A stretch of 47,967 bases of DNA from Dehalococcoidales bacterium (GTDB lineage Bacteria > Chloroflexota > Dehalococcoidia > Dehalococcoidales > RBG-16-60-22), in the NCBI GenBank assembly GCA_028706655.1, contig JAQTVW010000001.1, positions 1 through 47,967 on the forward strand. Direction: 5' to 3'. Shown piece by piece: positions 12,559 through 41,073 of this stretch (positions are counted from its first letter, which is position 1; every line of letters starts with the position of its first letter). Position numbers and translations under genes: made by a program. Below the pieces are notes generated by a model. It made no database searches. It saw only the letters and a list, made by a program, of their open reading frames with translations, and had not been told where the DNA came from.

Positions 12559-12865
12559 TATTAAAATCCACCTCTCTTTGCAATATAATTACTGCCTTTT
12601 AATTATAGCATCTGTTTACGCTCTAATTCAAAACCGGAACAGACAAAAAAGAAGCAGGCTTCCTGAACAATCATCTGAAACCGGTCGGTTGATTGCTCAG
12701 GAGGTCTGCTCCTGACTTCGTTCCACTACTCCTTCTTTCTGGTTTCCTTCGCCAGATGGCTCATTTGCCCGAGGGCAATAGCCTCTTCCAAGTTTTCAAG
12801 GAGCTCGGGAACCTTCTACAGAATGCCTCTGTCGCAACATATTTTCTACAATTAGCGTATCACAT

Positions 12866-12921
12866 CCCTTTTCTTTCCTTTCCGCTCATTCTCTTTCTTC
12901 GCTCTCTTTCTTTCCCTCTTT
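12866..12921 (+). repeat. polypyrimidine (CT-rich) low-complexity tract
   Basis: The sequence ccttttctttcctttccgctcattctctttcttcgctctctttctttccctcttt is almost entirely C/T on the plus strand. It lies inside the 534-nt thiolase/encapsulin divergent intergenic region. Confidence 0.7.
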
Positions 12922-12978
12922 AGCTTATTACTATATACCCGGAATACGGAGTGCGTCTGCGACTTTTATCACACCGGT

Positions 12979-13023
12979 AAATGACACAAATTTGTAACTA
13001 TTTCCCCCGCCATTTTATAACTT
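12979..13023 (+). promoter_or_regulatory. putative encapsulin-operon promoter with embedded ACAAATTTGT palindrome
   Basis: The sequence is aaatgacacaaatttgtaactatttcccccgccattttataactt. It reads as TTGTAA-17 nt-TTATAA and is 37/45 identical to the nrdJ upstream module in the same orientation relative to the gene. Confidence 0.5.
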
Positions 13024-13043
13024 CTCCATTGCGGGGTTGCTAA

Positions 13044-13068
13044 GATAATCAGTCAGATAATAGCTATC
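13044..13068 (+). promoter_or_regulatory. possible Fur-family box in the encapsulin 5' leader
   Basis: GATAATcagtcaGATAATaGCTATC has two GATAAT hexamers. The second forms a 6-1-6 imperfect inverted repeat resembling GATAAT-n-ATTATC. It sits between the putative -10 and the SD. Confidence 0.3.
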
Positions 13069-13092
13069 AATTGAATTTAAGAGGAGGTCAAC

Positions 13093-13455
13093 ATGCCCGA
13101 TTTTGCCAATCCCTTTGCCGGGAAGGTGCCTGCGGGTAAGCTCACGAGGGGTGAACTGGTGCGGGCGATACGCCTCGACCTGGCGGCGGAAGAAGAGGCA
13201 ATTCATCTCTACCTCGCGCAGGCGGACGCGACCGAAGACGCTCTGAGTAAAGCCGTGTTGACGGATGTCGCTAACGAGGAACGGCAACATGCCGGAGAAT
13301 TTGCGCGGCTCATCCAGCTTCTGACCGGCGACGAGGACAAGTGGCTGGCGGCGGGTGCTGCCGAAGTGGACGCCGCGGCTGCCGGGCTAAGTACAGCGGA
13401 GAAAGCTGCCCCGCCGGTTAAGGAAACACCGACTATCGGCACGTTGAAACAATAA
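13093..13455 (+). CDS. encapsulated ferritin-like cargo protein (EncFtn type) with C-terminal encapsulin targeting peptide
   Basis: 120 aa preceded by a strong GAGGAGG SD. It has ferritin-like helices with EEEAIH and NEERQH (ExxH) ligand motifs. An Ala/Pro-rich linker leads to the terminal ...KETPTIGTLKQ, which matches the family-1 targeting-peptide pattern (cf. LTVGSLRR / SLGIGSLK). Confidence 0.85.
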   Translation: MPDFANPFAGKVPAGKLTRGELVRAIRLDLAAEEEAIHLYLAQADATEDALSKAVLTDVANEERQHAGEFARLIQLLTGDEDKWLAAGAAEVDAAAAGLSTAEKAAPPVKETPTIGTLKQ

Positions 13456-13472
13456 AGAAGGAGGATGATACT

Positions 13473-14264
13473 GTGACTAATAAATTTCTCACCCGCGAGG
13501 ATGCTCCGATTGAAACCAAGACCTGGGAGGCGCTCGATACGACGATGATGGAAGCCGCCAGGAGTGTCCTGAGCGGGCGGCGTATCCTGGCTATCGAAGG
13601 TCCCTATGGGCTGGGTTTGAAAGCGATTGCCCTGAGCGACCCGGAGACCGACGACAGTCCGGCAGTCAGTCCTGTCCTGCCGCTGGCGCTGATTCACCGG
13701 AACTTCACCGTCGCCAAGCGCGACCTCGCGGCATTTGAACGCGACGGCATTCTGCTGGACACGAAACAGGTGGCGGAAGCGGCACTCGCCTGCGCGGCTG
13801 CGGAAGACGCTCTCGTCTTCAAAGGCACCCGTGAAGTGCGCGGACTGTTGAATGCCAGGGGCAGCAATAGTATCAAGTTGAGCGATTGGGAGCAGGTGGG
13901 CACTGCCGCCGGGGACGTTATCAATGCGGTGACGACGCTGGACAATGCCGGTTTCCACGGTCCCTACGTACTGGCGTTGACGCCCGAGCGCTACAACCTT
14001 TTACTGCGCTACTATCCTTCCGGGAATTTGAGCGAACTGGAGCATATTAAAAAGATTACCGCCGAGGGGGTCATCAAGGCGCCGGCGCTGGAAAGCGGGG
14101 GCGTGCTGCTGGCGGCGGGACGCCAGTTTGCGTCTATCATCGTCGGGCAGGATATGGCGGTCGGCTTCATCGGTCCCGCCGGAGAAAGCCTGGAGTTCTC
14201 GGTATCAGAGAGCCTGTCGCCGTATATCCGCGTTCCGCAGGCGGTCTGCATCCTCGAAGGCTGA
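13473..14264 (+). CDS. family-1 encapsulin shell protein (Linocin M18 / HK97 fold)
   Basis: 263 aa with a GTG start 8 nt after AGGAGG. The N-terminus MTNKFLTREDAPIETKTWEALD and the overall length are typical of T=1 encapsulins. It lies directly downstream of the TP-bearing cargo. Confidence 0.85.
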   Translation: MTNKFLTREDAPIETKTWEALDTTMMEAARSVLSGRRILAIEGPYGLGLKAIALSDPETDDSPAVSPVLPLALIHRNFTVAKRDLAAFERDGILLDTKQVAEAALACAAAEDALVFKGTREVRGLLNARGSNSIKLSDWEQVGTAAGDVINAVTTLDNAGFHGPYVLALTPERYNLLLRYYPSGNLSELEHIKKITAEGVIKAPALESGGVLLAAGRQFASIIVGQDMAVGFIGPAGESLEFSVSESLSPYIRVPQAVCILEG

Positions 14265-14301
14265 AATCCGTAGAAATTGAATAGTTTGGAGGTATCATCC
14301 C

Positions 14302-14787
14302 ATGATGGAAGAATCCCTGGGTAAAGAGTTCCTGGAGGTCGCTATTGAAGTCGAGCGCAACGGACGCGCTTTTTACGAGCGGGTCGCCGGCAAGACCAAA
14401 AGCAAAGAGGGCAGGAATGTCCTGCTGTTGCTGGCGGGTCGGGAGAAAGAGCACGAATCAAACTTCCAGCATATCCTCGGGCACCTGGGCGGCTATGCCG
14501 CTTCGGAGTACACCCGCCAGCGCGGCGATTTTATCCGGGACCTGGCCGGCTCCGTGATATTTATCAGCGAAAAGGCGATGGGCTTGTTGAATAACAAGAC
14601 TCTTACGGATATTGAGGCAGTGGAAGCGGGCATCGGCATGGAGAAGGACTCGATTTTGTTCTATTCGGAGATTATCGGCTTGTTGCCCAAAGCCGACCGT
14701 GACATCGTGGATATCATCATCGGCGAGGAAAAGAAGCACCTGAGCGAACTGGTAAACCTCGCGGACAAATTGCGCAGCGGGACTTAG
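14302..14787 (+). CDS. rubrerythrin/ferritin-like di-iron four-helix-bundle protein (no rubredoxin domain, no targeting peptide)
   Basis: 161 aa with a duplicated E...ExxH pattern (EVERNG...EKEH and GMEKDS...EEKKH). The C-terminus ...ADKLRSGT lacks a G-S/T-L-K/R tail. Confidence 0.7.
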   Translation: MMEESLGKEFLEVAIEVERNGRAFYERVAGKTKSKEGRNVLLLLAGREKEHESNFQHILGHLGGYAASEYTRQRGDFIRDLAGSVIFISEKAMGLLNNKTLTDIEAVEAGIGMEKDSILFYSEIIGLLPKADRDIVDIIIGEEKKHLSELVNLADKLRSGT

Positions 14788-14829
14788 AACAAAGCAGCTA
14801 ATTTTGGACAAATTAAAAGGTTGACGAAG

Positions 14830-14859
14830 AGGGCGGCAGGTTCATTTCTCTGCCGCCCT
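14830..14859. terminator. bidirectional GC-rich hairpin between convergent genes
   Basis: The stem agggcggcag/ctgccgccct is 10 bp with a 10-nt loop. T-rich sequence follows on the plus strand. Confidence 0.7.
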
Positions 14860-14863
14860 TTAC

Positions 14864-15025
14864 TTACTTGTTTTTAACTTCGTCTTCAGGCTTTATCGCT
14901 TCACAGCAACCGCACTGGCACTGACTGCTGGCAGCGCAGGGTTTGCAGCAATACTTCACTCCCTGCTTTACGTAAGAATCGGCACCGACGGAACAACCAC
15001 AGGTAGGACAGATTTGTTCTGCCAT
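14864..15025 (-). CDS. 53-aa cysteine-rich metal-binding miniprotein (TRASH/YHS-like zinc-ribbon plus CxCxCC tail; metallothionein-like)
   Basis: Not in the supplied ORF track because it is under 60 aa. My hand translation is MAEQICPTCGCSVGADSYVKQGVKYCCKPCAASSQCQCGCCEAIKPEDEVKNK, with 10 Cys. A GAGGTGA SD lies 6 nt upstream of the ATG, and the hairpin terminator lies just downstream. Confidence 0.7.
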   Translation of the reverse strand: MAEQICPTCGCSVGADSYVKQGVKYCCKPCAASSQCQCGCCEAIKPEDEVKNK

Positions 15026-40977: not shown

Positions 40978-41073
40978 TGGCGGGAGCGCATGGGAGTCGA
41001 ACCCACCGAAGACACTGACGTGCCCCCCAACGGATTTGAAGTCCGCGAAGTCCACCGGGGCTCATGCGCTCCC
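40978..41073 (-). tRNA. selC: tRNA-Sec (anticodon UCA), CCA encoded
   Basis: The hand fold of 96 nt gives an 8-bp acceptor stem (GGGAGCGC/GCGCTCCC) and a 5-bp T stem with a TTCGACT loop. It also gives a 6-bp D stem with a 4-nt loop and one mismatch, the anticodon loop CU-UCA-AA, a roughly 8-bp variable arm, discriminator G and CCA. Confidence 0.9.

Follow-up and report, generated by a model that had tools for sequence, protein, structure and literature searches.

A predicted EncFtn encapsulin in a probable variable oxygen- and iron-defense neighborhood of a Dehalococcoidales bacterium

The window analyzed here, by which we mean the complete 47,967-bp contig of a Dehalococcoidales metagenome-assembled genome (MAG), carries a locus of four genes encoding a 120-aa ferritin-like protein, a 263-aa encapsulin shell protein, a 161-aa di-iron protein (hereafter Fer161) and, convergent to these, a 53-aa cysteine-rich protein. 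A preliminary description had read the locus as an encapsulin operon expanded by two extra metal proteins into a candidate metal-storage island. We consider it likely that the locus is a canonical encapsulin core set in a lineage-specific permutation of a variable oxygen- and iron-defense neighborhood, and not a dedicated four-part machine. The gene for the 120-aa cargo lies directly 5' of the shell gene in 16 of the 16 related loci that cover the region (seven genome loci plus metagenome loci). None of the 17 related shell loci recovered in two scans, where neighboring genes were found by hidden Markov model (HMM) scan of six-frame open reading frames (ORFs), carries a Fer161 orthologue, and none carries a true homologue of the 53-aa gene; the comparison of gene neighborhoods thus failed to recover the four genes as a conserved set.

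The cargo and shell proteins and their transcription

Sequence comparison places the 263-aa protein among the family 1 encapsulin shells; with its cargo it forms a standard EncFtn encapsulin pair. It matches Pfam Linocin_M18 (PF04454) with E = 9.8e-70 (235 bits, cut-off 24.3) and the NCBIfam encap_f1 equivalog (NF041155) with 222 bits (cut-off 100) over model positions 1–261 of 261. Full-length phmmer comparisons relate it to 37 solved encapsulin shells, the best being M. xanthus EncA (4PT2, 6.6e-35), and the shell of T. maritima (3DKT) is matched at 1.6e-18. An HK97 fold would be expected from this homology to solved shells.

The 120-aa protein is, by the same kind of comparison, a cargo of the EncFtn/EncB family, a two-helix half-ferritin with a conserved C-terminal targeting peptide, and it falls nearer the EncB/EncC branch than classical EncFtn. 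It passes NCBIfam EncB_fam (NF058679; 101.3 bits, cut-off 90) and stays below the cut-offs of TIGR04535 (69.9 vs 125) and Pfam EncFtn-like (19.7 vs 27), and the solved structure it matches best is M. xanthus EncC (7S8T, E = 4.5e-13, residues 5–81 aligned). All 10 relatives compared retain the ligands of the Glu/Tyr/Glu-x-x-His ferroxidase site (E33, Y40, E63 and H66) without change, and all keep the tail TIG[ST][LM][KR], which follows a linker that differs in length and sequence. In the window this tail reads PTIGTLKQ, in line with the family 1 targeting peptides SLGIGSLK and LTVGSL of the literature (PMC11202242 Table 2). With curated models passed, solved homologues found and the tail conserved, the EncFtn cargo, the targeting peptide and the family 1 shell all stand as first described.

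Membership in these families suggests how the pair would work. The shell protein would self-assemble into an HK97-fold icosahedral compartment, and EncFtn would be packaged into it via the C-terminal TIGTLKQ; EncFtn would then oxidize Fe(II) at an inter-subunit di-iron site, and the ferric mineral would be kept in the shell. In a strict anaerobe, the compartment may mainly limit Fenton chemistry on exposure to O2 or H2O2.

Outside Dehalococcoidales, the closest relatives of the EncFtn-shell pair in the genome collection belong to Methanotrichaceae and Methanomicrobiales MAGs, with shell identities of 55–60%. Because the closest relatives outside the clade sit in these groups, we regard the two-gene module as mobile, and the sequences suggest that it moved between domains in shared anoxic habitats. 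Scans of viral contigs for either the shell or Fer161 gave no matches.

All four ORFs were recovered with the positions and motifs previously given (Table 1), and the intergenic gaps called for a single correction: cargo and shell genes are separated by 17 nt, not 18, and the 37 nt reported between the shell and Fer161 genes stands. A GGAGG-type ribosome-binding site precedes each of the four genes; that of the 53-aa gene, GAGGTG, is located 7 nt 5' of its ATG. The hairpin proposed as a terminator shared by the convergent genes is also present. Its folding energy is -27.2 kcal/mol on one strand and -20.6 kcal/mol on the other (z = -3.15 and -3.8), with weak U-tracts on both, and the 37-nt spacer between the shell and Fer161 genes is unstructured (-2.2 kcal/mol) and contains no terminator. 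Because the spacer is unstructured and terminator-free and a strong hairpin follows Fer161, encFtn, enc and the 161-aa gene probably form one transcript, with the Cys-rich gene as a separate convergent unit.

The divergent intergenic region between the thiolase gene and encFtn is unusually long (534 nt, 12559–13092) and contains an inverted repeat (12650–12713; 29-nt arms, 79% complementary) and CT-rich direct repeats (12872–12919). An Rfam scan of this region returned no credible match, the only hit being a spurious mir-341 hairpin (24 bits vs a gathering score of 90). Roughly 25 nt 5' of the EncFtn start lies a 7-1-7 palindrome, AGATAAT-A-GCTATCA (13055–13069, +), which resembles a Fur/PerR-family box, and a second GATAAT is located 12 nt upstream of it. 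We set the box aside as too weak to serve as evidence: it has 3 mismatches, and matches of this quality occur five times in the window, where chance alone would give about one. An antisense ORF at 13209–13958 (-) was taken as a high-GC artefact.

Table 1. Coordinates of the genes and other elements of the encapsulin locus in the window
Feature	Position	Strand	Remarks
EncFtn/EncB-family ferritin-like cargo, 120 aa	13093–13455	+	EEEAIH and NEERQH motifs; tail ...PTIGTLKQ
Predicted targeting peptide PTIGTLKQ, C-terminal, after Ala/Pro-rich linker	13429–13452	+	Tail conserved in relatives
Family 1 encapsulin shell, 263 aa, GTG start	13473–14264	+	Linocin_M18 and encap_f1 models
TM1526-like di-iron four-helix-bundle protein (Fer161), 161 aa	14302–14787	+	Pfam Rubrerythrin; 1VJX match
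G+C-rich hairpin between convergent stop codons, likely bidirectional terminator	14828–14861	.	13-bp stem
53-aa miniprotein from ATG, 10 Cys, His-free	14864–15025	-	Assigned to a divergent bacterial metallothionein lineage (moderate confidence)

The 161-aa and 53-aa proteins

Fer161 had been called rubrerythrin-type, a label that suits its fold and ligands and not its domain composition. The generic Rubrerythrin model is its only Pfam match (38 bits, cut-off 22.8). Residues E18, E48, H51, E114, E143 and H146, which make up two E...ExxH motifs, are invariant in 34 homologues, and the AlphaFold2 (AF2) model is all-helical with a pLDDT of 80.7. TM1526 (1VJX) ranks first in both the sequence comparison (2.3e-6) and the fold comparison (Foldseek, 6e-4), and the fold matches that come next are Dps-like proteins, bacterioferritins and rubrerythrin (including 1RYT). 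The sequence has zero Cys and stops directly after helix 4, without a rubredoxin domain. Assignment as a rubrerythrin proper was rejected on these grounds, the C-terminal rubredoxin-like Cys4 Fe domain being absent, and Fer161 is therefore best regarded as a TM1526-like stand-alone protein. A literature search on TM1526, erythrin and related terms found nothing relevant.

We looked for an IGSLK/TIGSLK-like targeting peptide at both ends of Fer161 and found none. The C-terminal tails of encapsulin-linked orthologues (LRSGT, LRGGM and LKMSG) are similar in length and sequence to the tails found in unlinked orthologues (LRGGV, LKGG and IRSG), and thus contain no recognizable targeting peptide. 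At the N-terminus, helix 1 begins with the SxGKEFLE segment, which unlinked orthologues keep as well. As far as sequence can tell, there is no sign that the 161-aa protein is encapsulated, and its earlier description as an untargeted di-iron protein holds, with invariant ligands and a helical model.

The 53-aa protein, whose cysteines are at positions 6, 9, 11, 26, 27, 30, 36, 38, 40 and 41, is present in the public record as hypothetical protein PHR56_00060 and so is not unannotated, as had been stated. Its proposed metallothionein-like character is supported at the level of the family. Alone, the protein gives no significant hit in Pfam, NCBIfam or the PDB, and none in Pfam at E <= 1. An exhaustive search with it collected 48 cluster representatives of 45–60 aa at E <= 1e-3, in which C6, C9, C26 and C30 are invariant (C-x2-C...C-x3-C) and C11, C27, C36 and C38 nearly so. 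Pfam Metallothio_Pro (PF02069) is matched by 34 of 43 aligned members (best E = 3e-6), and in the PDB the family profile ranks the bacterial metallothioneins 6GV7, 6GV6 and 6GRV first (2e-3 to 3e-3), with SmtA (1JJD) at 0.087. An hhalign comparison of the family with SmtA, made with an SmtA sequence that we supplied, gives a probability of 65% over the zinc-finger core. The AF2 model consists of N-terminal beta-hairpins and a short helix (pLDDT 80–88 for residues 1–33), and its best Foldseek matches are again 6GRV and 6GV6, at a non-significant E of ~0.3, followed by TRASH-type L24e and MYND fingers. With moderate confidence, we take the protein to be a divergent bacterial metallothionein of the SmtA/BmtA-type lineage that lacks His.

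Gene neighborhoods and alternative explanations

Orthologues of Fer161 are found in several settings. Two of them, P0002 (L016; 69% identity to the window protein) and P0003 (L017; 66%), follow immediately on the 3' end of a shell gene that is ~80% identical to the window shell, at gaps of 26 and 12 nt. Others follow POR alpha/beta, with AhpC and acetyl-CoA synthetase upstream (L001/L002, 52% identity); POR, with AhpC, three Usp genes and SOR nearby (L003–L005, 53%); Fe/Mn-SOD (L018/L019, 56%); or PFOR and ferredoxin (L020, L032 and L033, 51–56%). One precedes acetyltransferase and phosphoribosyl pyrophosphate (PRPP)-related genes (L031, 57%). L033 also has a shell gene, with 61% identity to that of the window, on the opposite strand and 4.4 kb from the Fer161 orthologue. 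Counting the window's own lineage, the gene is directly shell-adjacent in three of 10 lineages, with gaps of 12–37 nt, and within 5 kb of a shell in a fourth.

Three side observations concern these loci. In L001–L005, L020, L032 and L033 the order POR/PFOR, 2x[4Fe-4S] ferredoxin, Fer161, glyoxalase, phosphoribosyltransferase recurs, which hints at ferredoxin as the electron donor of Fer161. In L001 (5717–5893) and L002 (3954–4130) a 58-aa ORF between POR-beta and the Fer161 orthologue matches Rubrerythrin weakly (Pfam E = 0.005; Fer161 HMM 3e-4) and looks, from its sequence, like a single-ExxH half-ferritin miniprotein. The ORF 5' of the Fer161 orthologue in L017 (3–365 of a 953-bp contig) matches the shell in its last 28 residues only (82% identity), and its first ~85 residues are unrelated to the shell and have no Pfam hit; either a chimeric assembly or a genuine rearrangement may account for it.

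Homologues of the 53-aa gene appear in the same surroundings. They follow Usp and SOD genes in L006–L008; in L032 the homologue is placed between POR and ferredoxin, ~1 kb 5' of the Fer161 orthologue; and in L034 it is directly upstream of acetyl-CoA synthetase, a gene also found in the L001 cluster. These contexts indicate that the metallothionein gene shares the Fer161 neighborhood independently of encapsulins. The tie between metallothionein and encapsulin proposed in the preliminary description is accordingly replaced by one with the Fer161 neighborhood, as in L032, L034 and L006.

The related shell loci have neighbors of another kind. In L028 a 156-aa rubrerythrin-fold protein, 31% identical to Fer161, is encoded 181 nt 3' of the shell. 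In L022/L030 two proteins with the ExxH motif twice are encoded within 2 kb downstream of the shell, and a flavodiiron protein and SOR upstream. Directly 3' of the shell, the related metagenome loci L023 (1545–2420) and L024 (2535–3407) encode an erythrin-VIT1 fusion (Pfam Rubrerythrin plus VIT1). In L009, SOR is 27 nt 5' of EncFtn, with prfA and prmC downstream, and in L021 archease and RtcB lie downstream of the shell. In the shell tree, four separate bacterial sub-lineages each have at least one rubrerythrin-fold gene next to the shell. No such neighbor was found in the nine archaeal-type loci (L010–L015, L025, L026 and L027); L027 was left out of the tree and placed with this group by its match to L026. 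Assuming few rubrerythrin-fold genes per genome, their recurrence beside the shell is unlikely to be due to chance. The shell-side partners are not orthologous; what appears to be conserved is a neighborhood of oxygen and reactive oxygen species (ROS) defense and iron handling, not a defined accessory subunit.

Two of these loci deserve a separate remark. The cluster in L028 (1716–6661) runs in the order TRASH-like zinc-ribbon ORF, DJ-1/PfpI, Dps-type ferritin, EncFtn, shell, 156-aa rubrerythrin-fold protein, flavodiiron protein, and is the fullest oxygen- and iron-defense neighborhood found around this encapsulin clade. Its TRASH-like ORF matched the 53-aa profile and was rejected as a metallothionein homologue, as it has four Cys and no Cys cluster. 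The erythrin-VIT1 protein of L023/L024 resembles an MbfA-type iron exporter, which would place an iron-export gene beside an iron-sequestration module.

The claim that a second ferritin-like gene is linked to the shell thus survives in part. It holds in the narrow clade of L016/L017 (gaps 12–26 nt) and, through non-orthologous genes, in L022/L030, L023/L024 and L028; most Fer161 orthologues are found beside POR, ferredoxin, SOD or AhpC genes and have no shell gene next to them.

A first alternative is that the EncFtn-shell module was inserted by pure coincidence beside 161-aa and 53-aa genes with which it has neither function nor regulation in common. The lack of either gene in the 17 scanned shell relatives would fit this view, as would the wholly different flanks of the nearest full-length relatives (prfA/prmC in L009, archease/RtcB in L021), the seven of 10 Fer161 lineages that have no adjacent shell, and the outer flanks of the window itself, where the genes (ribonucleotide reductase, thiolase, trpB, trpA and a MacAB-type ABC system) have no connection with stress. 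Set against this are the shell-Fer161 adjacency at 12–37 nt in three diverged lineages (Fer161 identity 66–69%), the further orthologue 4.4 kb from a shell in L033, the terminator-free shell-Fer161 spacer, and the non-orthologous rubrerythrin-fold genes that adjoin the shell in another three bacterial sub-lineages, a pattern not seen in any of the nine archaeal-type loci. On balance we think coincidence unlikely.

The second alternative lies at the other extreme, with Fer161 as a dedicated partner of the compartment, either as a non-canonical second cargo or in external iron delivery or release or peroxide removal at the shell, and with the metallothionein as third component. Operon-like spacing kept in three lineages speaks for such a partner, and so does the recurrence of a second di-iron protein immediately 3' of the shell in L028 and L023/L024. 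There are also precedents, both for several ferritin-like cargos (M. xanthus EncB and EncC) and for N-terminal targeting peptides on accessory ferredoxins (PMC8346489). The protein itself argues otherwise: neither end of Fer161 carries a TIGSLK-like peptide, its C-terminal tail is indistinguishable from those of orthologues with no encapsulin nearby, and its N-terminal SxGKEFLE is accounted for by helix 1 and kept in unlinked orthologues. Most orthologues, moreover, associate with POR, ferredoxin or SOD genes, and the metallothionein gene, which is encoded on the opposite strand, is missing from all other shell loci. We hold this proposal to be very improbable. A variant confined to the bacterial branch would make the untargeted rubrerythrin-fold protein after the shell a true partner, acting as a ferredoxin-driven peroxide/O2 reductase or in exterior iron hand-off, with lineages having recruited different paralogues (Fer161, the ExxH-twice proteins, erythrin-VIT1) and the His-free metallothionein as an occasional third component; this we judge to be quite doubtful.

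The preferred reading, a canonical core within a variable defense neighborhood, suggests the following for the two additional proteins. Fer161 would most likely be co-transcribed with the operon, its product staying in the cytoplasm, and a common response to O2, H2O2 or iron is a plausible meaning of this co-transcription. Because its orthologues normally occur with POR, ferredoxin, SOD, AhpC and SOR genes, we infer a peroxide- or oxygen-reducing (rubrerythrin-like) or iron-buffering role, possibly fed by ferredoxin. The putative 53-aa metallothionein, probably transcribed separately, may buffer Zn, Cu or Cd through its thiolates or act as a redox sink. The 53-aa and 161-aa genes would stem from the same ancestral neighborhood, and in the simplest history the EncFtn-shell module landed, in the clade of the window, just 5' of a pre-existing 161-aa gene and its metallothionein neighbor.

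Several points weigh against this reading. Few relatives were sampled, and these are mostly metagenomic fragments: L009 and L021 come without upstream flanks, and the contigs of L016 and L017 each span less than 1 kb, with an upstream ORF in L017 that looks chimeric. The 12–37 nt spacing in three lineages and the recurring rubrerythrin-fold gene by the shell would also fit a more specific partnership. The 53-aa protein of the window itself reaches no Pfam metallothionein score, and the cluster in the window has no further stress genes flanking it. The functions given here for the four proteins are predicted from sequences and structural models.

The core of the locus adds one more EncFtn encapsulin, from Dehalococcoidales, and brings no conceptual change. 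The wider observation is that in bacterial relatives the two-gene module is found repeatedly among SOR, flavodiiron protein, Dps, erythrin-VIT1 and TM1526-like genes. This setting supports a view of EncFtn encapsulins in strict anaerobes as an oxidative-stress response more than as bulk iron stores, and the neighbors point more to oxygen/ROS defense and iron handling than to the metal-storage island first suggested. In addition, two poorly characterized small families are brought to attention: the POR/ferredoxin-linked TM1526-like proteins and the ~50-aa His-free metallothionein. Elsewhere in the window, a tRNA-Sec gene at 40982–41073 (-) (Rfam RF01852, 73.6 bits, E = 2.5e-13) implies selenocysteine use by this Dehalococcoidales MAG.

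Comparison with known systems

Within a single literature collection, we found no description of encapsulins in Dehalococcoidia or beside SOR, flavodiiron or VIT1 genes. The statement that an encapsulin closely associated with a second, untargeted ferritin-like protein had not been described was, however, too strong, since a similar ferritin-like/rubrerythrin adjacency has been published for Flp-fusion encapsulins. Archaeal operons of this type contain extra non-encapsulated ferritin-like or rubrerythrin genes, which were read as a context of iron homeostasis and stress resistance (Andreas & Giessen 2021, PMC8346489). The window resembles them in having an additional untargeted ferritin-like gene at an encapsulin locus, and differs in that it is bacterial, its cargo is a protein of its own with a targeting peptide, its accessory protein is TM1526-like and of the erythrin type, and the archaeal-type relatives sampled here lack rubrerythrin-fold neighbors.

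The family 1 iron-storage system of Myxococcus xanthus, EncA with EncB and EncC (4PT2, 7S8T, 7S5C), provides the best solved matches for both shell and cargo and shares the C-terminal xxIG[ST]L targeting peptide after a flexible linker. The window encodes only one targeted cargo; M. xanthus EncA has 287 aa, compared with 263 aa for the window shell; and the host of the window is an anaerobic member of Dehalococcoidales, whose closest out-of-clade shells occur in methanogens. With the EncFtn systems of Rhodospirillum rubrum and Haliangium ochraceum the window has in common the cargo-then-shell two-gene operon, the half-ferritin with its Glu/Tyr/Glu-x-x-His site and a GSLK-type tail, whereas its cargo scores below the Pfam EncFtn-like and TIGR04535 cut-offs associated with classical EncFtn.

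TM1526 (1VJX), a COG1633-type stand-alone "erythrin" of Thermotoga maritima and putative ferritin-like diiron-carboxylate protein, is similar to Fer161 in length and in its ExxH-twice ligands; at ~25% identity, the match names the fold and metal site of Fer161, not its activity. Finally, the 53-aa protein appears to share the C-x2-C-x-C ... Y-C-x3-C-A zinc-finger-like core of SmtA/BmtA and the Pseudomonas fluorescens Q2-87 metallothionein (PF02069; 1JJD, 6GV6, 6GRV). The matches of its family to these proteins are weak (E = 2e-3 to 9e-2 by profile, and as given above for hhalign and Foldseek), and the 53-aa protein differs from them in having no His ligand, and in carrying an extra CC pair and a C-x-C-x-CC cluster at its C-terminus.

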